A stretch of 64,000 nt of DNA. Source: an uncultured virus (IMG/VR IMGVR_UViG_3300042456_000185). Its lineage: Duplodnaviria > Heunggongvirae > Uroviricota > Caudoviricetes > Crassvirales. The stretch lies in the IMG/VR virus record IMGVR_UViG_3300042456_000185. One strand, 5' to 3'. Below, one piece after another: positions 1 through 37,678 of the stretch. Position 1 is the first letter of the stretch. Every line of letters begins with the position of its first letter. The notes beneath the pieces were generated by a model, which did not search any database, was not told the DNA's origin, and was given only the letters and a program-made list of their open reading frames with translations. Both the position numbers and the translations under genes were made by a program.

Positions 1-3000
1 CTCCTGAAGAAGTAGATGAATGTAGCGTTATACCACTGTAGTTACCAGTTCCTGTAGCCCCACTAGCAAAACTTGCAACATTCCCGCTAGAACCTTTTAA
101 AACCTGTAGTTTTGCACTTGGACTAGTCGTCCCAATGCCGACGTTGGCAGTTGCTTTCTTAAATGTTATTGCCTCACTTGCTGTTCCGTAAGAATAAAAA
201 ATTAAATCCCCATTCCCGGCACCATTGGTTAATTGCCAATCACTTGCATTATCCCTATTAAACAATATACCACCGTCTTGACCACTCTTTTTGTTTAAGT
301 ACAAGTAGTAATTGGCGGCAGCATTATTGGCGTTCAGCTGAATACTACCGCCTTCAACGCTCAATTTTTGCCCTGGCGATGTGGTTCCAATACCAACGTT
401 TGCATTTATTATTGCCCCCTGGTATGGCGGTGTTGCCCCACCGTACCCAACGCTCAATCCTCCCTCACTTCCTAAAAATCCGCTACCTGTCCAAATGCTT
501 TTTTGGTTGTATGTTCGCAAATACGATGTGTCTTGCATAAACCATCCGCCACCGTAATCCTCAAAATAAAATGGATTTGTACCGGCAATCCTTATGACGT
601 TACTTGAATAAATGTCGCCACTTACTGTGAGTTTATACCCTGGACTTGTCGTTCCAATGCCTACGTTAGTTCCATTGTGATAAATTACACTACTACCACC
701 GTTGTTTGCTATGTTTAGCGTTGATGTTCTAAAAATTAACGGTTGATATGAAGTTGACGTGTAATCGTATGAAAAAAATTCGGCAATACTTGCGTCTTGA
801 TATGCGCCAATTCCTTTTGATCCGTTTTGTGCGATGAAACCTCCCGTTGCTATTGAAATTCGATGCCAACTTGCTGCATTTGTAGCTCCAGCCAATATGT
901 CACCCGATGTGTAAATATCACCGGAAACTTCTAATTTATATCCCGGACTTGTAGTCCCAATGCCGACGTTGCCCGCTGCGGTTATGCGCAACACCTCGGA
1001 ACCGTTTGTTCCAAACAACATAGGGTAAGCGCCATATCCAAAAATGAAATGTTGACCCGATGAATTTGAACCAACGTCCATTAATTGCCCGGAATTGGTG
1101 GTATTTGTATAACGTGTGAAAGTATTTCCGGTTCCGGAAATGTGCAACATTGATGCGGGGGATGTTGTACCAATCCCAACATTGGTAGCCGCATAAATAT
1201 CACCGCTAGATGAAATACTAATTGGCTCAGATGCACTTACATACAGTCCCTGACGAGTAGTGTGTACTAATGTTATACCTGGAGTTATAGGACTTCCACC
1301 AAACGTTACTGATTCGCTATTAAGCGGGAATACCTCAATGTTTAAGTCTGTTGTTGCCCCTACGCCTGATATTACTTGTGCCTCTACAGAATACGATTCA
1401 TTGTTATTGCTAATTACTCGGATGTTCAACTGGCTATAGAATCCAGATGTCGTTGTAATTGAGATGTCTTGGAAGTGGTTAACAAGAATTTGTGCGGTTA
1501 CGTTAACTACTACATTGCCTGACGTACCCTGAAATGACATATTCACAGCAGAGGCGAGAGAATTACCTGCGATAGTACAGATAGTCGTATAAGCTGTCTG
1601 ACTTACGTTGATTGTCTGCACATAACGAGGCGCTACATTGCTTGTGGTAGACGTACTACCATCCGCCATCAGGTACTGGGAAGCAGTGCCGCCGCTCTTG
1701 ATGAGCGACGATGCTGTTACGCTACTTGAGAAGGTGGCTGCACCTGTAGTATTATTAATTAATAAATTATTTACGGTTGTAGTGTTATTGTAATAACCAT
1801 AACTAGTAGAATTTTGAAATAATGTAATTGACGGTTGAGCTGTTAGCCCAAAAGTTAATACGTTACCGTTACCTGTAATAGCGGTTATCATTTCAGTAAA
1901 CCTACCGCCCCCAGCAACATCTAGTTTAACAGCAGGACTAGTAGTTCCAATTCCAATGTTTCCGGTAGATTGCTGAATATATAAATCAGGTCTTCCGTAA
2001 TTATAGTTGTAGAAACCATAATCTGCGCCAGATATATATCCTATCCCAAAGTAAGCGTAGTTGTCAGAATACTTCCACTTTACAGCAGACGGCCCAGAGA
2101 CCGTAACCGTTCCATCTACCTCAAGTTTTGTTACAGGGCTTGTGGTACCAATACCAACGTTTCCAGAGTTGTCAATGGTTACTCTTGCGCTAGTTGAGCC
2201 TGTACCAGTTTCTAAACTTATAGTCTTTCCCTGAACTGATAGAGGCTTAAATTCAGCACCCCAGTCTACAGCATATAGATAACTAACACCGCTAGAAACA
2301 GCAAGAGTTGTTGAGTGTCCTTGTGCTGGCAAGCCAACAACGGCTCCAGTAGCTGAAATTGCACCAGCAACTTCTAGCTTTTCATAAGGACTAGTTGTCC
2401 CAATACCAACATTACCTCCAGAAACAATAGATACTTGATCAGAATTTCCTTCACGAAATCTAATCGCCCTTGTGCTTGGTCGATTAATGTATAAATCAGA
2501 ATCTGTTGGAGATGAAAGGAAATTGTAATTTGCTGTACTTAATGTGCCATTGAGCGAAATACCGGTATAGTTTCCGCTACCAAACCCAGCGTCACCAATG
2601 TGAGCAATACCGGTTCCGGAACCAACCACGGACAATTTGTGTGCGGGTGATGTAGTTCCAATACCAACGTTTCCACCCGATGCAATACGCATACGTTCAG
2701 ATTCGCTACCGTCCCTAAAAATTACATTTGTACCGACAATGTTTAAGTTAGCCCAGGCATTTAATGCTGAATTATGACCCCCAATTACCGCACCATTTGT
2801 TAAAGACGTAAGGTATCCGGTTATTACTTTGTCAGTTCCGTTTTTACCAAATACAGCAGTACCAAACCAAGAAGTTTCACCGGGAGTTATATTGTCACCC
2901 AATAATAGCGAACCACCGGGGGTAATTCGCATTTTAGCAGAATTATTGGTCGCAAAAGACAATGGATGATTTGTTTCTGTACCAACGGACATAAAGTTGT

Positions 3001-6000
3001 TTCCGGTGTCTATTCCAACGTTACCAGTAACAGTTCCGCTACCAATAGTAAGAACCGGGTAAGATGTTTTGAAAAGATGTAGGATTGATGCTGGACTAGT
3101 CGTTCCAATACCAACGTTTCCGGTGGGTGATAATCTCATCACTTCCCCAGCGGCATTGTTAAACTTTAGCGGGCCTTGTCCACCATTTGCCCAGCTATAT
3201 GTCATTGTAGTTCCTAAAGCTCCAGACGTGCCGTTTGTAGCAATCTCAAATACAGAATTAGATGTTCTAAAATCCAATACTCTAACAGAAGCTGAACCGT
3301 AATCGCCTAAATGAATGTCCCCAGAAACGTTTAATTTAGCACTTGGACTAGTAGTTCCAATTCCAACGTTTCCACTATCGGCAACGGTTACCAAATCGAC
3401 AATCGTTCCAGCTGTATTTTTAGCGATGCGATATTGCCATCCCGTGCCATCGGTTCCAAATGCAAATCGTGTGCTTACCGGTGAAACGGGATTTTGTGTT
3501 GTTATTTGTGCCGTTCCAACCGCTCCGGCTGTCGGGCCAAATATAACGCCACCCGTTGCGCCAACGTGAAGCGAAGCGGCTGGCGATGTTGTTCCAATAC
3601 CAACGTTGCCCGTGCTGGTGATGCGCATCTTCTGCGTGGCAGCAGTCCAAAAGTCCATATTGCCAGTACCAGTATAGATGTTCAATCCACCATCTCCAGC
3701 CCAATCGGTAGTGTTTTGGTTTCCTAACCAGATATAAGCATCTCTTGAACCCGCTATAAATTCTAGTTGGGTGTACTGGTTTGCCGAAGTGCTAGAATTT
3801 CTAAATGTGGCCATCAGGTTTGAGCCCTGCACGTGAAATTTCTGAGCAGGACTAGTAGTTCCAATGCCTACGTTTCCGGATGTCGTGTCTATACGAGCAA
3901 GTTCACCACCGCTCCAATTTAAAAATTTTATAGGATCTCCACTTACCCTTGGGCCATAGCTTGTTGACCAAACGCCACCAACATAAATTTCGTTTGTAAA
4001 CCTTCCCGTACCACTCACATCAAGTTTAAAAGTATCATTAGTGTTTCCTATTGATAAATTACCTGATGCGTGAAGACGCATTTTTTCACCAGAAGTGCTG
4101 CCATTTGGATAAAAGTACAGAGCACCTCCTGTACCTGCGTTATATCCAACAATTGTTGGAATGCCAGCACCATAAGCTCCGCCCCAAGTTAAATTATTTC
4201 CGTTAGCTATATTGATACTACCATTGACGTCTAGCTTGGTAGCAGGACTAGTATTTCCAATTCCGACGTTGCCGTTTAACCCGTTTATCTTAACAGCAGA
4301 GTAAGAGGTTCCGCCAAGACCATCTGGCGATGTTGTAACAAACAGGTCTAAATCAGTAGTGGCATTATTTGCACCACCACTTGCGATGATTCCAGCACCT
4401 TGTCTTGCGTCCGAGTCTGGGAAAACACGAAGCAATAAGCCCATAGACGCATCAGTAGAGTACTGCGGGTTTGTGAAGCGGATTAAATTACCAGCAGTTC
4501 TATCAATAGCTGCCATATTCTGCTTACCAGCAACAGCATTAGTTACAACTTGTAACTTATGCGAAGGACTTGTGGTTCCAATGCCAACGTTACCACCAGA
4601 TGAAACAAAAAGTTTTGAATTTGCGTGATACTCTGGCGTTGTATCACTGTAACCAATGCTATAGCCACCTCCAGTGTATGGAACACCGCTAAACCATTTA
4701 TTGTTATCTGTTGAATTTCTATACAAAATTCCACGGCCCCTGTAGTCGTATGCACTTACTAGGTCTATAACAACGTCTTGAGACCCGAAGGCATCACCAG
4801 AAACTATTTTTAATTGAGTGCCTCCAGTCTGTGTGATTTGTAGTCTTGCATCTGGACTAGTAGTACCAATACCAACATTGCCACTAGTGTCAATAACCAT
4901 ATCCGGAGAAGCTCCGTTTGAGCCAAACTGAAGACTATTCCCAGCGGTAGCAAATACAGTTGCGTAACCAGTGTCCCAAGTTAATCCTCCAAAAGCAGTA
5001 GGGTATCCACCCCAGTATGAAACAGCTCCAGAATCTGTCCATAGAGAGTTGGACGAGAATGTTCCATTTACACGAAGTTTCTCAGAAGGGGTAGTGGTTC
5101 CAATACCAACGTTTCCGTTTCCACGGATGATCATTAAATTATTTGAATTGTACCCAGAGTTGTACAAACTTCCGAATACCATACTAACCATCGTACCGTC
5201 ATATTCGGTATAAATTTTCCCGGTAGTATTTGATTCATCGTGCCAAGTTATGCCACCCCTTGATGAACGGCTTGTGTCATATGAAACGCCAAGGCGCAAC
5301 AAAGCATCAGTTGTAACGTTTGAAACACCAATTTGAAGCAATGCACCGGGATTTGTGGTTCCAATTCCTAAATATCCATTTGTATTAAGGAACATTTTAG
5401 TACTATTATTAGTGCCAAAATATACCGGTGCATTTGCCCTGTTCCAAACATATCCACTACTTCCACCGTCCTGCCCATACAACATACTCGTTGATCCGAG
5501 TGTGTTTCCATTTCCAGAGATTTCAATATAAGCATTTCCACTTGCTTTATATATTGACAATGCAGATACCGGAGATGCCGTCCCAATACCAACATTCGTT
5601 CCGTTGTCAAAGATTTGTGAATCGCCAAGAGTGGTAGTTCCAGTAAACTTTGAAACGTAGTTAGTCGTGCCTGTTCCTGTAATAGGATTCGTTAAGGCTG
5701 GCTGTTTGTTATTAAACGTATTCCAATCTGTTGAGCTCAGGTAACCATCAGTGCTAGCCCCTGCCTGTGTGATACCTATCGTGCCAGTTGAAGTTATAGT
5801 TCCGCCAGTAATTGGTGCAGTTGTAGCAATAGACGTTACAGTTCCACCAGATGATGGAGAAGAGTTTGTGATGGTAAAGTTTGGATACGTTCCAGCTACA
5901 GAAATACCAGTTCCCGCTGTAAGTGCTACAGTTTGGTCAGGAGCCGTGTTAGTAAATGTCAACGTATCGGTAACAGCATCTGTAGTTACAGAGATACCAG

Positions 6001-8821
6001 TTCCAGACGCTACAGTAAGCGTGTCGTCATTTATGTCAGCAACAATAGTAGACTGCCCAGATACCGCAATGTTCTTGAATATGTACTGAGAAGAACCTGG
6101 GTCTGTGTTGTTTATTGTTATATTGTTATTTGTAGTGAGCGTAGTTATAGATACACCTGGACCAGGTTTCAGAGTAAACGTATCGTTGTTATTTGCCGCA
6201 GTTATGGTGGACTGAGTTGGAACAGCAATGTTCTTAAATATATTCTGCGAAGAACCTCTGTCGCTGTTTGTTACAGTAATTGAACCGCTTGTAGTAATAG
6301 GACCGCCAGACACAGTTATGCCGCTTCCTGCAGTTAAATCCACAGAAGTTACGGTACCGTCATACTGATCGTTAGATGTTACTGTAAAGTTTGGGTAAGT
6401 TCCAGTTACAACTGTAGTACCAGCTCCTGTAATGCTTACAACTTGATCAGGAGCAGCATTAGTAATTGTAAAGTTTGGATAGGTACCAGAAGTTGTGATG
6501 CCAGTTCCAGCAGTTAATACAACAGTCTGATCTGGAGCTGTGTTCGTAATCGTGAAGCTAGGATACGTCCCGCTTGTTGAAATGCCAGTTCCAGCTGTAA
6601 GTACAACAGTCTGGTCTGGGGCATTATTGGTAATTGTAAGCGTGTCTGTAGACGCATTGGTAGTTAGCGTTATGCCAGTACCTGAAGCTACGGTTAACGT
6701 GTCGTCAGCAGCGTCTGCCACAATGCTACTCTGGCCCGCAACAGCGATAGTCTTGAATGAGAAATCAGCCTTGCCATTAAACGTAATCCAGTCCGCAGAC
6801 GATAGCGCACCTCTGTTTACAGAAGATGCTGTTGGAAGGTTAAATGTATGAGTATCTGTTACAGAGTTGATAGAGAAATCTGTTCCAGTGGTCCCGGTAG
6901 CAAAATACTGAACTTGTTTAGTTAGTCCATTAAGTGCATTAAGTCCAGTAGAGAAAGTGGTAATAACCTGACACAAGTGTCCGTTTTCAGTATGTAGAGT
7001 TATTGTCCTTCCGCTGTGAATTACATAAACTCTTATGGCTAATCTATCTGTTACAGCAAGTGTAGTCTGTGGAACAGCAATAGCTCCAAAATATGCAGAT
7101 ACAATTGTACCAAAGGATATAAATTCTGGAAATGCTGAATTATTTGCAATTGGTGTAAAGGTTGTTCCATCGTACTTGCTTAACTCAACATAAAAAGATG
7201 GAGTTCCTCCACTTGAAGATGAGCTAAAGTAAAATTCAAAGTTCCAGTTTCCTCCTGGAATTTCTAGTAAAGATGGATCATTAGCATCTGTTATGAACTG
7301 GGCAATGTATCCATCAGCAGCAATAGTAAAATCAGTACCAGCTCCAATAATAGGTGTCTTGCTAAACTCACGATAAACATTACCTCCAAATGTTCCTTGG
7401 TTCACACTGCCATTAAGGTAGTAACTAACACTAGATCCTCCACCGCTACTAGTTGGGAAGTCTGCTAACTGACCATCGCCACGAATGTATTGTGAAGCAG
7501 TACCAGCTCCAGTTACAGCGATAGTACCACTGCTAGTTATAGGGCTGTTTGTTACTGTAAATGCAGAAGGCATAGTTAGACCAACGGAAGTAACAGTGCC
7601 TACATACTGGTCATTGCTGGTTATCGTAAAGTTTGGATACGTTCCAGTAATCAGTGTAGTTCCAGCACCTGTAAGAGATACAATCTGGTCAGGAGCGGTG
7701 TTGGTAATTGTTAACGTATCAGTTGATGCGTTTGTGGTAATAGATATAGCAGTTCCTGAAGCAACGGTCAAGGTGTCAGACACAGAGTCAGCTACGATGC
7801 TTGACTGTCCAGTTACAGCAATGGTACTAAACGCAGCAGTTGCAGCTAGCGTTGAGATAGGAACGTTCTGCCATCTAGAGTTAGCAGAGACATATGTAAG
7901 AACGTCATTGTTAAGCAGGGTTCCAAACTGGACCTGGTTATTTTCCGACAGCGTTGACCCAGTGTTTATTCTAACAGCCAAGGTTCCGTTACTTGCAGCA
8001 TTTACTACAAATGCAATTGGAAGCTTTAAGTTAGGTGCCTGCGGCTCTGTTGCAGTAAGTCCACCAGGAGATGCTGGATTGCACCACAATACCTGTCCGT
8101 TGACATATGCAGCTGTGTTAATCTGTCTAAGTTTACCCTTAGCTAATACATATCCGTCAGAGCCATCTTCAATAGCCTCTGAGGCGATACCTAAGATGTA
8201 CTTCGGACTCACTGAACCATCTGCCACCATAGGAGCTACTAAGATGCGTCCAGAGGCTCCTAAAGTGCCAACAGCCATCACGACAGTTCCCTTTGGAATC
8301 GTAGAACCAGTTTGATTCTTTACATACCACAGATCATCTTGTCCAACTTTAAGGATGGTGTTCTCATTCAGGCCAACATCCATAGTGGCGTTATCCTGAT
8401 CCCAAGATATGCGTCCTACAATGTTGCCGTTGCTATACGATGTGTCAAGGTCTACCCAGGGAGTTAATACACCTCCTACAGATATAGTATTTACAGTCGT
8501 GTTGCCACGAGTAGTTACCATATCCAGGGTATCCTCTGGAATTGGATTCAAGTCCTGGAAACTAAATGATATCTCAGAACCATCTCTTCTGGTGAGCGTA
8601 ATTGTCTTTGTCTGGTATCCGGTTACAGCTCCTGATACAATTGTCTCCCTGTAGGCTTCATCCCACTGGGCAGCATTACCTGACGTACTGGTTATGTTTA
8701 AATCACCACGGATCTTAGCCAATAACGTGTAATACGTTATCTCCTGAGTCTTCCTCAATGACGGGCTAAATACTGAAAACTGGTCAGCAGGATTAATCCT
8801 ATATACGTCTATAAGGCCCAT
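1..8821 (-). CDS. Giant repeat-rich tail fibre / adhesin-like protein (>2900 aa, runs off left edge)
   Basis: ATG at 8821 overlaps the TAA of the upstream gene (MGLIDVYRINPADQF...). The same frame is still open at positions 1-60 (ATGTGNYSGITLHSSTSSG), which explains its absence from the ORF track. Thr/Ser/Gly-rich with many GNVGIGTTSP repeats. Confidence 0.85.
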   Translation of the reverse strand, partial: MGLIDVYRINPADQFSVFSPSLRKTQEITYYTLLAKIRGDLNITSTSGNAAQWDEAYRETIVSGAVTGYQTKTITLTRRDGSEISFSFQDLNPIPEDTLDMVTTRGNTTVNTISVGGVLTPWVDLDTSYSNGNIVGRISWDQDNATMDVGLNENTILKVGQDDLWYVKNQTGSTIPKGTVVMAVGTLGASGRILVAPMVADGSVSPKYILGIASEAIEDGSDGYVLAKGKLRQINTAAYVNGQVLWCNPASPGGLTATEPQAPNLKLPIAFVVNAASNGTLAVRINTGSTLSENNQVQFGTLLNNDVLTYVSANSRWQNVPISTLAATAAFSTIAVTGQSSIVADSVSDTLTVASGTAISITTNASTDTLTITNTAPDQIVSLTGAGTTLITGTYPNFTITSNDQYVGTVTSVGLTMPSAFTVTNSPITSSGTIAVTGAGTASQYIRGDGQLADFPTSSGGGSSVSYYLNGSVNQGTFGGNVYREFSKTPIIGAGTDFTIAADGYIAQFITDANDPSLLEIPGGNWNFEFYFSSSSSGGTPSFYVELSKYDGTTFTPIANNSAFPEFISFGTIVSAYFGAIAVPQTTLAVTDRLAIRVYVIHSGRTITLHTENGHLCQVITTFSTGLNALNGLTKQVQYFATGTTGTDFSINSVTDTHTFNLPTASSVNRGALSSADWITFNGKADFSFKTIAVAGQSSIVADAADDTLTVASGTGITLTTNASTDTLTITNNAPDQTVVLTAGTGISTSGTYPSFTITNTAPDQTVVLTAGTGITTSGTYPNFTITNAAPDQVVSITGAGTTVVTGTYPNFTVTSNDQYDGTVTSVDLTAGSGITVSGGPITTSGSITVTNSDRGSSQNIFKNIAVPTQSTITAANNNDTFTLKPGPGVSITTLTTNNNITINNTDPGSSQYIFKNIAVSGQSTIVADINDDTLTVASGTGISVTTDAVTDTLTFTNTAPDQTVALTAGTGISVAGTYPNFTITNSSPSSGGTVTSIATTAPITGGTITSTGTIGITQAGASTDGYLSSTDWNTFNNKQPALTNPITGTGTTNYVSKFTGTTTLGDSQIFDNGTNVGIGTASPVSALSIYKASGNAYIEISGNGNTLGSTSMLYGQDGGSSGYVWNRANAPVYFGTNNSTKMFLNTNGYLGIGTTNPGALLQIGVSNVTTDALLRLGVSYDTSRSSRGGITWHDESNTTGKIYTEYDGTMVSMVFGSLYNSGYNSNNLMIIRGNGNVGIGTTTPSEKLRVNGTFSSNSLWTDSGAVSYWGGYPTAFGGLTWDTGYATVFATAGNSLQFGSNGASPDMVIDTSGNVGIGTTSPDARLQITQTGGTQLKIVSGDAFGSQDVVIDLVSAYDYRGRGILYRNSTDNNKWFSGVPYTGGGYSIGYSDTTPEYHANSKLFVSSGGNVGIGTTSPSHKLQVVTNAVAGKQNMAAIDRTAGNLIRFTNPQYSTDASMGLLLRVFPDSDARQGAGIIASGGANNATTDLDLFVTTSPDGLGGTSYSAVKINGLNGNVGIGNTSPATKLDVNGSINIANGNNLTWGGAYGAGIPTIVGYNAGTGGALYFYPNGSTSGEKMRLHASGNLSIGNTNDTFKLDVSGTGRFTNEIYVGGVWSTSYGPRVSGDPIKFLNWSGGELARIDTTSGNVGIGTTSPAQKFHVQGSNLMATFRNSSTSANQYTQLEFIAGSRDAYIWLGNQNTTDWAGDGGLNIYTGTGNMDFWTAATQKMRITSTGNVGIGTTSPAASLHVGATGGVIFGPTAGAVGTAQITTQNPVSPVSTRFAFGTDGTGWQYRIAKNTAGTIVDLVTVADSGNVGIGTTSPSAKLNVSGDIHLGDYGSASVRVLDFRTSNSVFEIATNGTSGALGTTMTYSWANGGQGPLKFNNAAGEVMRLSPTGNVGIGTTSPASILHLFKTSYPVLTIGSGTVTGNVGIDTGNNFMSVGTETNHPLSFATNNSAKMRITPGGSLLLGDNITPGETSWFGTAVFGKNGTDKVITGYLTSLTNGAVIGGHNSALNAWANLNIVGTNVIFRDGSESERMRIASGGNVGIGTTSPAHKLSVVGSGTGIAHIGDAGFGSGNYTGISLNGTLSTANYNFLSSPTDSDLYINRPSTRAIRFREGNSDQVSIVSGGNVGIGTTSPYEKLEVAGAISATGAVVGLPAQGHSTTLAVSSGVSYLYAVDWGAEFKPLSVQGKTISLETGTGSTSARVTIDNSGNVGIGTTSPVTKLEVDGTVTVSGPSAVKWKYSDNYAYFGIGYISGADYGFYNYNYGRPDLYIQQSTGNIGIGTTSPAVKLDVAGGGRFTEMITAITGNGNVLTFGLTAQPSITLFQNSTSYGYYNNTTTVNNLLINNTTGAATFSSSVTASSLIKSGGTASQYLMADGSTSTTSNVAPRYVQTINVSQTAYTTICTIAGNSLASAVNMSFQGTSGNVVVNVTAQILVNHFQDISITTTSGFYSQLNIRVISNNNESYSVEAQVISGVGATTDLNIEVFPLNSESVTFGGSPITPGITLVHTTRQGLYVSASEPISISSSGDIYAATNVGIGTTSPASMLHISGTGNTFTRYTNTTNSGQLMDVGSNSSGQHFIFGYGAYPMLFGTNGSEVLRITAAGNVGIGTTSPGYKLEVSGDIYTSGDILAGATNAASWHRISIATGGFIAQNGSKGIGAYQDASIAEFFSYDYTSTSYQPLIFRTSTLNIANNGGSSVIYHNGTNVGIGTTSPGYKLTVSGDIYSSNVIRIAGTNPFYFEDYGGGWFMQDTSYLRTYNQKSIWTGSGFLGSEGGLSVGYGGATPPYQGAIINANVGIGTTSPGQKLSVEGGSIQLNANNAAANYYLYLNKKSGQDGGILFNRDNASDWQLTNGAGNGDLIFYSYGTASEAITFKKATANVGIGTTSPSAKLQVLKGSSGNVASFASGATGTGNYSGITLHSSTSSG
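120..5600 (-). repeat. About 20 copies of a (G/T/A)NVGIGTT(S/T/N)P motif separating variable 80-100 aa modules
   Basis: Recurring plus-strand ccaatNccNacRtt at about 135, 390, 660, 960, 1175, 1950, 2150, 2400, 2660, 3105, 3360, 3595, 3862, 4258, 4580, 4868, 5100 and 5585; variants at about 4045 and 5360. Confidence 0.9.
5850..7830 (-). repeat. Second repeat family in the fibre (GTYPNFTITN.APDQ.V.LT.G.GI and F..IAV.GQS.IVAD units)
   Basis: gtaaagtttggata-type repeats at about 5875, 6385, 6470, 6555 and 7626; FKNIAV-type units at about 6070, 6230, 6750 and 7820. Confidence 0.8.
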
Positions 8822-20067: not shown

Positions 20068-20540
20068 TTCATACGGGTGTTATACTTTCTACGCATCTTC
20101 TGATTGTAGGACACTAGGTCGTTAAAAGTACGCCTTGTATTGCCTTCCTTGTTTCTTTCTACAGCAGCCTGTGCCATAAACTTCTCCCCCTCTGTAGCAT
20201 TGGAGGCTGTTCCCCTTCTGACAACCTTGATGTCTTTTCTCTCCTGAGCTCTAGCTGCCCTAGATCTATACTTTGTCGGGAGGCTTATATCTACCCCGAT
20301 CTCGTTTATAGTCAGTTTAGCAGGCTTACGTTTGTTTAGGCGCTCCTCTTGGAATGCCTTAAAGTCCTCTACAGTCTTTCCAGTGGGTCTTTCCACATAC
20401 TCTCCCCTTCTGGTTTTCATCTGGGCGAGCTTCTCCTGGTCAGCAGCACGAAGCATATCCTTAGCCTCAGACCTGGATACACCCTTCTTAGCTAGGGCGT
20501 ACCTGAGTCCAGATACTTTAGGAGTCTTGTTCGTCTTCAT
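20064..20540 (-). CDS. Highly basic protein, first gene of the leftward late operon
   Basis: 158 aa; preceded by a TATATTTG -7 element at 20559-20566. Confidence 0.8.
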   Translation of the reverse strand: MKTNKTPKVSGLRYALAKKGVSRSEAKDMLRAADQEKLAQMKTRRGEYVERPTGKTVEDFKAFQEERLNKRKPAKLTINEIGVDISLPTKYRSRAARAQERKDIKVVRRGTASNATEGEKFMAQAAVERNKEGNTRRTFNDLVSYNQKMRRKYNTRMK

Positions 20541-21429
20541 AACTTGTCTTTAGAGATACAAATATACATACTTTTGAGACTTGTAAGGGACTCTATGGGG
20601 TGATAGATAAAATCTATTAAGATACCCTTTGTGATAGATTTTCTTTAAAGCGTACTTGCATATATCATTTTTTTCTTGTAACTTAGCAGCGTCATAGGAC
20701 GTAAGTAAGATGCCGAACACGTCCACACGCTTCCCCGCTTAACAGTTGCATCGCACTGCCAACACGCATAGAGCACAGCGCAGGGGCCCCCAAGCCCCCT
20801 AGCCAAGCGATACTGAAGACACTACTAAGGAGGTTATGGGGATGCTGTATACTCCGCCCTGAGATCTTCATTGTATCCCATAAAATGACAGATTTCATAA
20901 CATAATTCCGAACATACCCGAATTACTTCCCAAAATTCGACAGATTCATCAAGGTACAATTTGTGGAACATATGAGGGGGGGGGTGATTAACCTGTGGAT
21001 TGCATAGAGTTCAAAGTAGGGTGGGGATAATATATATATTTCACACGCTCCGACCGCAACACCGAAACGAAATTCTGAACCCAACCCCCCTTGAACAGCG
21101 TCAAAATGCGTGTGGTTTTTGGCGTTTTTGATATGCTTGTTACAGCAGTTAATTGAAGTAGTAGTTTAAGTTTGTGATGGTTTTTTGGAGGAGGAGGAGA
21201 GGGACAATCCCCTTCCCCCTTTTCCTTCCCCTTTCCTACCCTATTTACCCTCCTATACATAAAGGCATTACATACCTTCCCATTGCCCCCGTTCCTGGAA
21301 CGTATGTTTTTGGGCACGTTCTGCCGTGCTGTTGTGCAATTCTGCCCTGCTGTAAACTTTTTTTCGTCCGTAAACCCTTGATTTTGTTGGGGTTTCCGAG
21401 CGAGTTGCGATTTTCCGTAAAAATAATTC

Positions 21430-21459
21430 TTGCATATCCGAATTGATGCCGTAAGTTTG
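21430..21459 (+). promoter_or_regulatory. Early promoter, Bacteroidota consensus
   Basis: TTG (21430-32), 19 nt spacer, TAAGTTTG (21452-59). Confidence 0.8.
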
Positions 21460-21502
21460 CAATGTCAAACAACAACAACAAACCCCCTAAACAAAACACG
21501 CT

Positions 21503-21766
21503 ATGAAAATTCAAGACCTTCAGAACTACGCCACCGCAAAGGGTATGAACTTTAGCCTGCTGACCAACGAGTTCGGTGAGCAGTATGCCGGCATTGAGTG
21601 GAAAAACAAGTACGTTTGGTACTGGTTCCGTGATGCAGTAGATTACACGCTGTTCACCGAGCGTTACTCACAAAACACAGGCCGCTCACAAGGCGCAGGA
21701 GTACGAACCGCTTGGCGTGCCGCTTGGAAAATTGAGCAGGCTGTTGAGGAGTTCACCAAAGGTTAA
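21503..21766 (+). CDS. Early hypothetical protein
   Basis: 87 aa, first gene after the promoter; its stop lies inside hammerhead 1. Confidence 0.8.
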   Translation: MKIQDLQNYATAKGMNFSLLTNEFGEQYAGIEWKNKYVWYWFRDAVDYTLFTERYSQNTGRSQGAGVRTAWRAAWKIEQAVEEFTKG

Positions 21767-21812
21767 CTGACGAGGATTGAATATCCGAAACGGGCGAAAG
21801 CCCGTCTTAACC
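21761..21812 (+). ncRNA. Type I hammerhead ribozyme 1 (predicted cut after GUC, 21806)
   Basis: GGUUAA-CUGACGA-GGAU(UGAAU)AUCC-GAAA-CGGGC(GAAA)GCCCG-UC^UUAACC. Confidence 0.93.
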
Positions 21813-21832
21813 AACACCTAAAAACACACGTT

Positions 21833-22147
21833 ATGAGCATTCACAAATTTGTAATCAAGTTCAGCAACCGCAAGAACAACAAATGCGTCAGTTTAATTGG
21901 TTACTTAAATGAGACAGGGTGGGGATTCTGCCAGTACGGCTCCTTCCGAAGTGAGCACGAAAGCAAGTACATCAATAGCACAGCGGAATTTATGTCGGCA
22001 CTTGAAAAGTACCTATGCAATCCAAGCCTAATGATTTACAGCGTTCAAGTGGACGGCAATTTGCCTACAAAATTTCAGTATTGGAATGCCGAAGGAACCC
22101 AGCAGGCACGTCAGGTTGTGGCTGAACTAATCGCAAAGGTTAACTGA
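21833..22147 (+). CDS. Early hypothetical protein
   Basis: 104 aa between hammerheads 1 and 2; its TGA stop is in the CUGAUGA core. Confidence 0.8.
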   Translation: MSIHKFVIKFSNRKNNKCVSLIGYLNETGWGFCQYGSFRSEHESKYINSTAEFMSALEKYLCNPSLMIYSVQVDGNLPTKFQYWNAEGTQQARQVVAELIAKVN

Positions 22148-22189
22148 TGAGTCCTAATTGGACGAAACGGGCGAAAGCCCGTCTTAACC
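22138..22189 (+). ncRNA. Type I hammerhead ribozyme 2 (predicted cut after GUC, 22183)
   Basis: GGUUAA-CUGAUGA-GUCC(UAAUU)GGAC-GAAA-CGGGC(GAAA)GCCCG-UC^UUAACC. Confidence 0.93.
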
Positions 22190-22210
22190 AAAGCACTAAA
22201 AAAACACGTT

Positions 22211-22411
22211 ATGAAAAACTACAAAGAAGGAAACGTTTACCACCTGAACGGAGTTTACGATGGGTACAAAGTAACGTTCAAACAGCACCCTGAAGGATTT
22301 TACGAAGCATATTCCAACGGACACCTCGGAGGCGCAACGTATTTCGGAACACTTGAGGAAGTAGAAAATTTCTACAACGACTGGATGGCCGAATTGAACG
22401 CAAAAGGTTAA
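22211..22411 (+). CDS. Early hypothetical protein
   Basis: 66 aa between hammerheads 2 and 3; ends GGT TAA in stem I. Confidence 0.8.
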   Translation: MKNYKEGNVYHLNGVYDGYKVTFKQHPEGFYEAYSNGHLGGATYFGTLEEVENFYNDWMAELNAKG

Positions 22412-22455
22412 CTGACGAGGCTTAAGTAGCCGAAACCCCTTCGGGGGTATTAACC
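22406..22455 (+). ncRNA. Type I hammerhead ribozyme 3 (predicted cut after GUA, 22449)
   Basis: GGUUAA-CUGACGA-GGCU(UAAGU)AGCC-GAAA-CCCC(UUCG)GGGG-UA^UUAACC. Confidence 0.93.
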
Positions 22456-22478
22456 AAAGCACTAAAAACACTATCAAA

Positions 22479-22640
22479 ATGAAATCATTTATCTTAACTA
22501 CCGGCAAAATTGTAAAAGCGCAAAGCCGCTTGGATGCCCTTAAATCTCAAGACCTGTTCATCTACTGGAAAGGCAACAAGCCTTATGGCCTTGAATACTA
22601 CGGGGCAAAGAATGAAATCTACGCCAAACTTGTAAAGTAA
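22479..22640 (+). CDS. Early hypothetical protein, 53 aa
   Basis: Read manually: MKSFILTTGKIVKAQSRLDALKSQDLFIYWKGNKPYGLEYYGAKNEIYAKLVK. Confidence 0.7.
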   Translation: MKSFILTTGKIVKAQSRLDALKSQDLFIYWKGNKPYGLEYYGAKNEIYAKLVK

Positions 22641-22658
22641 TCTTAAAACACTACCAAA

Positions 22659-22838
22659 ATGAAAACAAAGCAAACCTACTACTTTTGGGTACACAACGGA
22701 GAGAAGTACGTTATCGTTGACGAAGTAATTTGCTCCCAACCTTGGCGAACCAACATATACAAATATATTGAGGATTCCTTTAATAAAGGCGTTATCTCTG
22801 AATTTGGCTACACCTACGACAAAGAAACCATCAAGTAA
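22659..22838 (+). CDS. Early hypothetical protein, 59 aa
   Basis: Read manually: MKTKQTYYFWVHNGEKYVIVDEVICSQPWRTN...KETIK. Confidence 0.7.
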   Translation: MKTKQTYYFWVHNGEKYVIVDEVICSQPWRTNIYKYIEDSFNKGVISEFGYTYDKETIK

Positions 22839-22841
22839 AAA

Positions 22842-22893
22842 GGTTAACTGAAGAGGATTGAATATCCGAAACCTGCTCCGGCAGGTCTTAACC
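22842..22893 (+). ncRNA. Type I hammerhead ribozyme 4 (predicted cut after GUC, 22887)
   Basis: GGUUAA-CUGAAGA-GGAU(UGAAU)AUCC-GAAA-CCUGC(UCCG)GCAGG-UC^UUAACC. Confidence 0.93.
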
Positions 22894-22907
22894 AAAAAAG
22901 TTAAAGA

Positions 22908-23087
22908 ATGAAAGCACACACCATCACCCACAACGGCAAGACCTTCTATGCTGTTCACGCCTTTTGGCCTGCCCGTTACCTGAAATCTTGGGCACTACTT
23001 GACAACGAGGAATTGAAGACCAACAGCACTACGCTGTACTTCCGCACCAAGACCGCCCTTGTCCAACACGTTGAAAATAACTTCTAA
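22908..23087 (+). CDS. Early hypothetical protein, 59 aa
   Basis: Read manually: MKAHTITHNGKTFYAVHAFWPARYLKSWALLDNEEL...ENNF. Confidence 0.7.
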   Translation: MKAHTITHNGKTFYAVHAFWPARYLKSWALLDNEELKTNSTTLYFRTKTALVQHVENNF

Positions 23088-23097
23088 TTAAAACAAA

Positions 23098-23544
23098 ATG
23101 AAAACAAAAGAATTTAACCGCATTGTAGACCTGATGGAGGAATTGAACTACGCCATCCTTGAGTATCAAGAAAAGGAGGATAGCGTAATCACCGAAAAGG
23201 TAATTGACCTTGCCCAAATGAAGCACGAAGCAACGGAATTGCAGGGCACTATTTTGTCTGCCGCAATCTCACTTGCGGAAGCCGGTGAAGCAACCAAGTG
23301 GGCACGTAAATGCTCCATCACAGGCCAAGGTATGAACGAGGGATGGTACTGCGAAGACCTTGGTACCTACTTCAAGTACGAAGACGATGCCCTGAATTTT
23401 GCACAGGAACATACCTACGCAGACCTTGAATGCGCCTATGCCGATGAGTTTATGTACTGGACGCAATGGGAGGATGACTCTGACTTTGAGTACGTTCAGG
23501 TTGGCCCAAAAGTTTGGGCGCTACTTGACTTTGAAGTTTATTAA
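23098..23544 (+). CDS. Acidic early protein
   Basis: 148 aa, Asp/Glu- and aromatic-rich. Confidence 0.8.
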   Translation: MKTKEFNRIVDLMEELNYAILEYQEKEDSVITEKVIDLAQMKHEATELQGTILSAAISLAEAGEATKWARKCSITGQGMNEGWYCEDLGTYFKYEDDALNFAQEHTYADLECAYADEFMYWTQWEDDSDFEYVQVGPKVWALLDFEVY

Positions 23545-23551
23545 AAAAAAC

Positions 23552-23582
23552 TTGCACAGGTAAGAATTAGTAACTACATTTG
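23552..23582 (+). promoter_or_regulatory. Early promoter
   Basis: TTG, 20 nt spacer, TACATTTG (23575-82). Confidence 0.75.
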
Positions 23583-23619
23583 ACAAATCAAAATAATTCA
23601 AACAATAAAACAAAATAAA

Positions 23620-23940
23620 ATGTTTAACAAGCACACCTGGGTTCAAGAGGAGCGAGACACCCTCCTTGAATATGCAAAAGACGGAGCAACACACGATGAG
23701 TTGCACGACCAGTTAATGTCAGACATCGATACGGCCTGCATCTACTATGCGGACTGCTTTGACATCATTAAAACATTAAGATTTACCGACTGGTCAAAGG
23801 CCGAGTTTGAGGTCAAGAATGTTACTGAAGCGGCATACTGCGCTCTTTATGAGTTGTCAAATGAGTGCATCGACATCGATGCAATCCTTAAAGAATCAGG
23901 AAATGCAGGAGCAACCAACGAACAAAAAACAAACAATTAA
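23620..23940 (+). CDS. Ocr-like anti-restriction DNA mimic
   Basis: DELHDQLMSDIDTACIYYADCFDII resembles T7 Ocr [26 protein letters not shown] (recalled); acidic, similar size. Confidence 0.65.
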   Translation: MFNKHTWVQEERDTLLEYAKDGATHDELHDQLMSDIDTACIYYADCFDIIKTLRFTDWSKAEFEVKNVTEAAYCALYELSNECIDIDAILKESGNAGATNEQKTNN

Positions 23941-23945
23941 ACAAA

Positions 23946-24182
23946 ATGGAAAACACAAGAAAAATCATTGACCGCCTAAACGCTATGGAAGACCAAAGCG
24001 AATTTTACTACGGAGTGTTCTGCGTTGCAGACCGGATGCAGGCAAACGGCTACGAAGTAGAGGCATTGGACGAGTTCTTTTTTGACGCTAAAAATGAGTA
24101 CACGGCGTTCTTATTGAGCGAGTTCAACGTGGACACAAAGAGCGAACTTGACTGCATTGATGACTATTTTTTTAACAAGTAA
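23946..24182 (+). CDS. Acidic early protein
   Basis: 78 aa ORF with an A-rich leader. Confidence 0.75.
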   Translation: MENTRKIIDRLNAMEDQSEFYYGVFCVADRMQANGYEVEALDEFFFDAKNEYTAFLLSEFNVDTKSELDCIDDYFFNK

Positions 24183-24193
24183 TTCAAACCACT

Positions 24194-24376
24194 ATGAAAC
24201 CATCTATCATTTTAGTCCGGACAGCCATCGCCCTGATGCTGTTGCTTACCGCCCGCTTCTTGGAAGCCTACGAGTACGGACAGGCCATCATCTGCACCTT
24301 TATCACCTTTGTACTATGCTTGGCGGACGTGCAAATTGAAATCATTTACGAACAAAAAAACAAATTAAACAAGTAA
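24194..24376 (+). CDS. Small membrane protein
   Basis: Two hydrophobic segments. Confidence 0.65.
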   Translation: MKPSIILVRTAIALMLLLTARFLEAYEYGQAIICTFITFVLCLADVQIEIIYEQKNKLNK

Positions 24377-24381
24377 ACAAA

Positions 24382-24780
24382 ATGGAAAACGAAAAACTTA
24401 ATCAAATGATTCAGGCCGCTATTGAGTGGGCTGGAAATGTTAACGGGAAGCAGGGGTTGTTTGACATATCTTATGCTATGGGACTTGACGAAACGCATTG
24501 TTCCGGCTGCGAAGATGATACCCCGCACTTTGACAAATGCTGTGTTGTTTGCGGCCAGTACAACGAGCAAATGATTCAGGCCGATAAAGTTACTTTTTGG
24601 AGAGTTACCGAAATTGATTGGGACACTGATGGGAACTTTATTGCCCACCTACCTACGGAAAGGACAATTATGCTTCACGAAGGCCAAGATGAAGACGATA
24701 TTGCCGATATTTTGAGCGATAATTATGGATGGTTCATAAACTCCTTTAAATCCGAACAAATTGAAATGCCAACTAAATAA
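24382..24780 (+). CDS. Early protein with a zinc-ribbon-like motif
   Basis: CSGC...CVVC. Confidence 0.75.
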   Translation: MENEKLNQMIQAAIEWAGNVNGKQGLFDISYAMGLDETHCSGCEDDTPHFDKCCVVCGQYNEQMIQADKVTFWRVTEIDWDTDGNFIAHLPTERTIMLHEGQDEDDIADILSDNYGWFINSFKSEQIEMPTK

Positions 24781-37582: not shown

Positions 37583-37656
37583 GCCCCTGTAGCTCAATTG
37601 GATAGAGCAACGCACTTCTAATGCGTAGGTTGATGGTTCAAATCCATCCGGGGGTA
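37583..37656 (+). tRNA. tRNA-Arg (UCU)
   Basis: Cloverleaf: acceptor GCCCCTG/CGGGGGT, anticodon arm ACGCA-CTTCTAA-TGCGT, T arm GATGG-TTCAAAT-CCATC; no encoded CCA. Confidence 0.93.
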
Positions 37657-37678
37657 CTAACACCATAAAATAAAAATT

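Follow-up and report, generated by a model that had tools for sequence, protein, structure and literature searches.

The early mRNA of bacteriophage T7 is cut between its cistrons by RNase III, which yields gene-length mRNAs carrying a protective 3′ hairpin. Hammerhead ribozymes leave 5′-OH and 2′,3′-cyclic phosphate ends. Here we describe four type I hammerheads (HH1 to HH4) located between small genes of an uncultured virus, IMG/VR record IMGVR_UViG_3300042456_000185, which was analysed as a single stretch of 64,000 nucleotides (nt) that we call the window. Clustered hammerheads flanking single genes in prophages were published in 2011 (Perreault et al., PLoS Comput Biol, PMC3088659), and passages of that paper already propose that they process long phage transcripts and report that three clustered arrangements cleave in native transcripts of about 2 kb in vitro, and one in E. 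coli. The 2017 review by de la Peña et al. (PMC6155905) restates the existence of these clusters; together with parts of a 2019 review (PMC6765202), it presents hammerheads as flanking small non-conserved open reading frames (ORFs) and as persistently linked to phages, with their role left open. The 2011 paper also discusses haloviruses HF1 and HF2, in which a mapped 5′ end lies at most 3 nt from the hammerhead cleavage site (PMC3088659).

As far as the relevant passages of the 2011 paper describe them, the prophage arrays resemble the locus studied here in having several same-strand hammerheads that flank single small non-conserved genes or short blocks of them in phage DNA, and the proposed role is shared, namely the conversion of long phage transcripts into gene-length mRNAs. 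The window differs in that its type I copies are found in a lytic-looking, Flavobacteriia-type podophage and in metagenomic relatives of it. A 6-bp stem I capped by A on both sides, a conserved loop II, an upstream gene whose stop codon is part of the ribozyme, a leader of around 26 nt and scores short of the Rfam thresholds are not described in the passages of the 2011 text used for this comparison; its figures or supplementary alignments may already show some of these details. HF1 and HF2, from the account given in the same paper, share with the window a hammerhead a few nucleotides ahead of a start codon (that of an early helicase gene in the haloviruses) in a polycistronic transcript, which is early there and presumably so in the window. 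They differ in that an archaeal virus carries a single hammerhead, the core of which is a variant one, whereas the window has an array of canonical type I copies. The first-pass annotation of this DNA, made from its letters alone, knew of no worked-out role for a gene-by-gene array of this kind. The novelty that this implies is smaller, since clusters, the processing idea and cleavage were all published in 2011 (PMC3088659); that the role of such elements is still open agrees with what the 2011 paper and the two reviews say of it (PMC3088659, PMC6155905, PMC6765202). The loci described here are new members of a known arrangement and establish no new principle. Our literature searches returned no paper joining hammerheads with Cellulophaga, unrelated word matches alone for hammerhead ribozyme with crAss, and, for prophage or intergenic hammerheads, nothing on stop-codon overlap among the papers listed, the one candidate paper dealing with an engineered ribozyme. 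Judging from motifs and placement, it is probable that HH1 to HH4 are active in one sense transcript of small phage genes, which would cut itself into gene pieces.

Four type I hammerheads between small genes

As listed in Table 1, HH1 to HH4 are 50 to 52 nt long and share one layout, GGUUAA / CUGANGA / 4-bp stem II with a 5-nt loop / GAA / stem III / H17 / UUAACC. The type I topology is present, with an open stem I and loop-closed stems II and III, and the catalytic core (C3-U4-G5-A6-N7-G8-A9 and G12-A13-A14) is complete in all four copies. From HH1 to HH4, N7 is C, U, C and A, and H17 is C, C, A and C; stem III starts with A15.1, closes with U16.1 and carries the loops GAAA, GAAA, UUCG and UCCG. 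Stem II is GGAU/AUCC in two copies and GUCC/GGAC or GGCU/AGCC in the others, and stem III is CGGGC/GCCCG in two copies and CCCC/GGGG or CCUGC/GCAGG in the remaining ones. Unlike these two helices, stem I (GGUUAA/UUAACC) is the same in every copy. The copies are mosaic, stem III being common to HH1 and HH2 and stem II to HH1 and HH4.

Folding of each isolated element gave a minimum free energy (MFE) structure and a centroid structure that both correspond to the hammerhead fold with its three helices, with z-scores of −2.98, −4.09, −1.45 and −2.67 for HH1 to HH4. When 40 to 150 nt of native flanks were included, the hammerhead fold was the MFE structure or lay at most 2.3 kcal/mol from it. A descriptor combining the core and the three stems matched four times in the 64-kb window (both strands) and not once in 20 shuffles, and GGTTAACTGANGAG had four exact matches, every one in the array. 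We also scored the window with a covariance model, R1, built from a gapless alignment (A2) of 37 copies, three of them from the window and 34 of the same length from other viral contigs; HH3 was left out of the training. R1 gave between 58.8 and 73.1 bits for the four copies (Table 1) and 9 bits for the next best match. Descriptor, exact-match and R1 results exclude chance as the origin of the elements, and HH1 to HH4 are complete type I hammerheads of canonical form that lie between small genes, on their sense strand. The first-pass annotation had named all four with their positions, stems and cleavage triplets, and was right in each respect, since descriptor and folds agree with it; its cleavage positions are correctly placed on the motif, and its view that the elements are intercistronic on the sense strand agrees with the ORF map.

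Rfam behaved differently from R1. At gathering thresholds, a scan of the window reported a transfer RNA (tRNA) alone and no hammerhead. A permissive scan added HH2 only, which aligned end to end with RF00163 and scored 30.2 bits where the gathering score is 34, and HH1, HH3 and HH4 were absent from the output up to E = 10. The Rfam Hammerhead_1 family (RF00163, clan CL00010) has the topology and core of HH1 to HH4 and differs from them in that HH2 falls under its threshold and the other three go unreported. With such results, all four copies would go unnoticed in a routine Rfam annotation.

The four copies lie within 1.13 kb and bound segments of one, one, one and two genes. The description of the locus as a gene-by-gene array, also put forward in the first-pass annotation, is accordingly true of most segments and not of that between HH3 and HH4, which carries two genes. 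At three of the four copies the stop of the preceding gene overlaps the ribozyme, and the leader from the cut to the next AUG measures 26, 27, 29 and 20 nt after HH1 to HH4. An A-rich leader of the form CTAAAAACAC...ATG recurs at 21488-21517, 21818-21847, 22196-22225, 22462-22487 and 22642-22667, with or without a ribozyme ahead of it, and is probably the translation-initiation region typical of hosts of such phages.

The 104-aa protein encoded between HH1 and HH2 has homologues of 103 to 105 aa with 91, 70 and 67% identity, which indicates that at least this ORF is a real gene. The DNA of its 67-70% homologues was not found in scans of metagenome and genome contigs, and viral contigs yielded two identical copies only; covariation was accordingly assessed at the level of the family. 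The small array proteins gave no convincing Pfam or PHROG match, and nine small proteins of the window compared with 238 kb of other hammerhead-bearing loci showed no homologue save a weak match of 29 aa. As judged by this comparison, the genes between the ribozymes vary from one hammerhead-bearing locus to another. Two antisense ORFs that run across the array (154 and 103 aa) were considered as genes and rejected, as nothing supports them and neither has a PHROG match.

A type I subclass in viral contigs

The IMG/VR viral contigs were scanned with a core-only pattern of 16 bases (TAACTGANGAG, 9-17 nt, CGAAAC), which fixes UAA alone in stem I, leaves stem III entirely free and does not ask for pairing within stem II. 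At least 130 viral-contig stretches matched; all counts for the family given below are among the matches listed. The three helices were found in the right register in 124 of 142 distinct matches. Pairing in alignment A2 held in 99.8% of cells, a figure that is inflated because its copies were chosen by a pairing descriptor, so that 124 of 142 is the fair one; double changes were present at 12 of the 16 pairs, none of 500 column shuffles reached as high a value, and sliding one partner by one to three columns lowered pairing to 29-38%.

Core columns are invariant across the 37 copies of A2, as are the pairs A15.1-U16.1 and G10.1-C11.1. In the wider set, H17 is C in 122 and A in 22 of 144 copies, 132 of the 144 unique copies have a stem I of precisely 6 bp, stem I is flanked by A on its 5′ side (95%) and on its 3′ side (87%), loop II reads U(99%)-N-A(90%)-W-U(81%), and 70 of 86 four-base loops of stem III are GNRA or UNCG tetraloops. 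Conservation of loop II and of the A/A cap suggests that loop II and stem I make a tertiary contact, of the kind that hammerheads require in order to cleave fast when Mg2+ is low. A pseudoknot between loop II and the flanks was tried as the form of such a contact and rejected, as its pairing did not exceed that of permuted controls (0.606 vs 0.579 for the 5′ flank, 0.570 vs 0.504 for the 3′ flank). As delimited by these alignments, the copies define a uniform and abundant type I subclass with a 6-bp, A/A-capped stem I, a 4-bp stem II and a U-N-A-W-U loop.

Placement was analysed in 141 distinct copies, comprising the window's four and the viral-contig copies at least 150 nt from the end of their locus. 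In 123 of them, a sense ORF with 40 codons or more came to an end between positions −40 and +15 relative to the start of the ribozyme. Its stop lay in the ribozyme in 70 of these 123 cases (the stem I UAA in 42, the core UGA in 22), and in 53 the ORF stopped ahead of it; the pattern itself dictates that stem I contains UAA, but not that this UAA serves as a stop. On the other side, an ATG-initiated ORF of at least 30 aa began within 60 nt past the cut in 131 of the 141, and the leader had a median of 26 nt (10th-90th percentile 19-41). An ORF end and an ORF start together flanked 114 of 141 copies on the sense strand. The antisense control gave 6 of 141, and among 2084 positions drawn at random on the same strand the share was 9.6%.

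In prokaryote genomes, R1 matched in 10 of the 80 pattern loci fetched, and among the matches listed the subclass is mainly viral. Seven of the ten matches are in Legionellaceae (Legionella loci L152, L169, L182, L186, L206 and L221, and Tatlockia locus L181); Legionella hammerheads upstream of ardA receive a mention in the 2011 paper (PMC3088659).

The phage, its relatives and the region around the array

The window encodes a portal protein, a large terminase, virion structural proteins, a primase/helicase and a ribonucleotide reductase. Its terminase is closest to that of an uncultured podovirus (47% identity), then to those of the Flavobacterium 'elemo' phages (39%), of Maribacter phage Panino, and of Cellulophaga phages phi40:1, phi46:3 and phi19:3 (about 36%). 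By these affinities the window belongs to a phage of the Flavobacteriia-type podophage lineage, and a host in Flavobacteriia is likely. A crAss-like identity, suspected from the ORFs of 2940, 2668 and 1740 aa, was rejected, as the terminase matches those of crAss-like phages partially, at about 22-35%. Blastn of positions 21400-24400 against named phages gave no match. The nearest record (G001) has four hammerheads with spacing identical to that of the window, and close viral-contig relatives are 99.98-100% identical to it over the 5.3 kb compared.

Scoring of whole viral records with R1 detected nine copies within 4.3 kb in G002, four in G003, three in G004, three in G005 and four in G006, all on one strand within each record. 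The terminases of G002 and G005 are 48% and 46% identical to that of the window, and their genes are divergent from the array as in the window, which makes the array a trait of the lineage with a variable copy number. As far as gene order in these records goes, the array occupies a syntenic small-gene operon in related phages. Two of five named relatives, Flavobacterium phage vB_FspP_elemoA_7-9A and Cellulophaga phage phi19:3, have one R1 copy each. Both copies have the orientation of the small hypothetical genes that surround them and lie close to a divergent intergenic region. That of phi19:3 is predicted at NC_021789.1 21769-21817 on the minus strand, and the TAA of the gene upstream of it likewise lies within stem I. 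The predicted hammerhead of elemoA_7-9A is at NC_055852.1 17290-17347 on the minus strand. Antisense over it, at NC_055852.1 17275-17382 on the plus strand (L142 1776-1883), is gp68, a 35-aa 'hypothetical protein' that is probably a mis-call.

The ribozymes belong to the first part of a run of small plus-strand ORFs, which a gap of about 960 nt separates from the packaging and structural genes on the minus strand. This gap (20540-21503) has no convincing ORF; promoters, an origin or a genome end could be located in it. Within it, at about 21180-21236, is a purine-rich/pyrimidine-rich hairpin-like stretch, GGAGGAGGAGGAGAGGGA ... CCCUUCCCCC, for which the Rfam scan gave weak, chance-level matches to microRNA models and no more. 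The gap also contains a match to TAnnTTTG (Table 1), which we take to be the Bacteroidota −7 promoter consensus; of the first early promoter placed here by the first-pass annotation, this candidate element is what the analysis retains. This pattern is not enriched in the window (54 occurrences vs 48.7 expected), a sigma-70 promoter scan gave 5 matches vs 5.5 in shuffles, and no terminator-like site was found on the plus strand between 21503 and 24400. The genes of the array are presumably co-transcribed, and the position of the operon suggests that it is early. Elsewhere in the window, a tRNA-Arg (anticodon UCU; 37583-37657, plus strand; Rfam tRNA 72.1 bits, in agreement with ARAGORN) sits amid genes for replication and nucleotide metabolism.

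Table 1. Hammerheads, small genes, candidate promoter element and giant ORFs of the window, with window coordinates
Feature	Position	Strand	Remarks
Candidate promoter −7 element TAAGTTTG	21452..21459	+	Pattern match; 44 nt ahead of first ATG, in the divergent intergenic region
Small gene, 87 aa	21503..21766	+	TAA stop (21764-21766) in stem I of HH1
HH1, type I hammerhead, 52 nt	21761..21812	+	Predicted cut 3′ of C21806; R1 72.2 bits
Small gene, 104 aa	21833..22147	+	Stop is the UGA of the HH2 CUGAUGA core; last codons (K-V-N) form stem I
HH2, type I hammerhead, 52 nt	22138..22189	+	Predicted cut 3′ of C22183; R1 73.1 bits
Small gene, 66 aa	22211..22411	+	TAA stop in stem I of HH3
HH3, type I hammerhead, 50 nt, GUA triplet	22406..22455	+	Predicted cut 3′ of A22449; R1 58.8 bits
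Small gene, 53 aa	22479..22640	+	18-nt spacer, then next gene; no ribozyme after it
Small gene, 59 aa	22659..22838	+	Stop ends 3 nt upstream of HH4
HH4, type I hammerhead, 52 nt	22842..22893	+	Predicted cut 3′ of C22887; R1 68.0 bits
Small gene, 59 aa	22908..23087	+	First gene past HH4; 20-nt leader after the cut
Giant ORF, 2940 aa, open-ended	2-8821	-	
Giant ORF, 2668 aa	41676-49682	-	PHROG match of unknown function alone
Giant ORF, 1740 aa	51968-57190	-	Match to a virion structural protein family

Predicted processing of the transcript and alternative readings

The motifs and their placement are best read as the first-pass annotation proposed, with a polycistronic transcript that processes itself at the four sites. 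Each ribozyme would fold once its approximately 52 nt have been transcribed and cut itself 3′ of H17, so that cleavage would be constitutive and co-transcriptional; it would presumably take place in vivo as well. The upstream piece would retain its entire ORF with the stop, about 40 nt before the cut, and would end in the hairpins of stems II and III with a 2′,3′-cyclic phosphate. The weak, A/U-rich 6-bp stem I would then melt and free the downstream piece, which would begin with 5′-OH-UUAACC followed by an unstructured A-rich leader of 20-29 nt before the next AUG. The predicted products measure about 342 nt, provided that the transcript begins near 21465, then 377, 266 and 438 nt, followed by the remaining operon.

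The payoff may be a set of separate mRNAs, the stability and translation of which would not depend on neighbouring genes. 3′ hairpins and the lack of a 3′-OH and of a 5′-monophosphate slow RNA decay in bacteria. The predicted 3′ and 5′ ends would be poor substrates for exonucleases, for polyadenylation and for RNases that sense a 5′-monophosphate, and protection of this kind may be the benefit under selection. Such processing would be a protein-free counterpart to that of T7 early mRNA by RNase III. As proposed, the two have in common one early transcript cut between cistrons and 3′ hairpins; in T7 the cuts are made by a host enzyme that leaves 5′-phosphate and 3′-OH ends, whereas the RNA of the window would cut itself and leave 5′-OH and 2′,3′-cyclic phosphate ends.

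Several results weigh against this self-processing. A search for RNA sequencing runs with positions 21400-23400 listed none. None of the four copies reaches an Rfam gathering threshold, and by Rfam's own rule the Infernal/Rfam search that the first-pass annotation had put forward as a check fails. A gathering threshold is a curation rule and not a biochemical feature, and in view of the descriptor, covariation and R1 results we read the shortfall as a sign of a narrow model and not as evidence against the motifs. The A2 alignment had been pre-selected by pairing, as stated above. At some flank lengths the weak stem I of HH1 and HH4 loses to alternative pairings (minimum pair probability 0.00-0.06). 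The ribozymes are also dispensable in the lineage, as three of the five named relatives have none and the other two a single copy. Finally, a ribosome that terminates at a stop located in stem I or in the core would open up any ribozyme still uncut; cleavage then needs to be fast or to fall between ribosomes, unless the overlap is itself a means of control.

This last possibility, in which ribosome traffic on the upstream gene would unfold the ribozyme and cutting would report or tune translation, fits the stop codons found within the ribozyme in three of four window copies and 70 of 123 family copies. The overlap may equally be mere genome compaction, the upstream ORF stops earlier in the other 53 cases, and nothing resembling a sensor element can be seen. 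Where tertiary contacts are present, natural hammerheads as a rule cut in seconds to minutes, which also weighs against such control. Regulated cleavage of phage hammerheads is nonetheless an idea raised in a passage of the 2011 paper (PMC3088659); for this locus we regard it as very unlikely. It is somewhat easier to imagine, yet still improbable, that the units are mainly borders of mobile or shuffled gene cassettes and that RNA cleavage is secondary or selfish. A conserved unit of about 58 nt between unrelated small genes would then provide homology for recombination, by which phages swap genes with each other. The flanked genes are indeed not conserved, neither across the 238 kb compared (nine proteins, one weak 29-aa match) nor in terms of Pfam or PHROG families; presence in relatives is patchy, with copy numbers of 4, 9 and 3 in related phages; the window copies are mosaic in stem III (HH1/HH2) and stem II (HH1/HH4); and inconstant gene identities are also mentioned in the 2011 account (PMC3088659). 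DNA linkers, however, need no intact core, no compensatory changes in three helices and no conserved loop II, all of which are seen in more than 120 distinct copies, and no swap was seen, the close relatives compared being 99.98-100% identical over 5.3 kb. Roles as cassette border and in cleavage can moreover coexist.

The uniformity of stem I raises another alternative to the release of linear mRNAs, namely that excised single-gene RNAs are circularised when their 5′-OH-UUAACC pairs again with the GGUUAA of the 3′ ribozyme, ligation being performed by the ribozyme or by an RtcB-type ligase. Stem I is the same in all four window copies, in which stems II and III differ, and across 25 arrays the ratio of within-array to between-array divergence at variable pairs is 0.40 for stem I versus 0.79 for stem II and 0.61 for stem III, stem I being lowest in 1940 of 2000 bootstrap resamples of arrays. 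Stem I is uniform in only 8 of the 25 arrays, however, and shared ancestry, recent duplication or gene conversion can explain such uniformity as well; circular or spliced products were looked for and none detected, according to a statement (data not shown) in the 2011 paper (PMC3088659). We consider circularisation of this kind extremely improbable. A more general version, in which interchangeable halves of stem I would rebuild a hammerhead across RNA ends and give circular, exonuclease-proof mRNAs or action in trans, is highly improbable too; if true, it would make phage hammerhead arrays bacterial factories of circular mRNA.

Self-cutting of the linear transcript remains the reading that we favour, and its bearing on phage biology is as follows. 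The role of many phage hammerheads is acknowledged as open in sections of both reviews (PMC6765202, PMC6155905), and the window sharpens the question. Placement is close to single-nucleotide, with the stop in the ribozyme and some 26 nt of leader past the cut; an abundant type I subclass that Rfam thresholds miss is now defined, as far as the alignments delimit it; and arrays appear at a syntenic place in a Flavobacteriia-type podophage lineage. Since two cultured phage-host pairs carry one predicted copy each, Flavobacterium phage vB_FspP_elemoA_7-9A on Flavobacterium sp. BAL314 and Cellulophaga phage phi19:3 on Cellulophaga baltica #19, the role of the cuts is open to experimental test.

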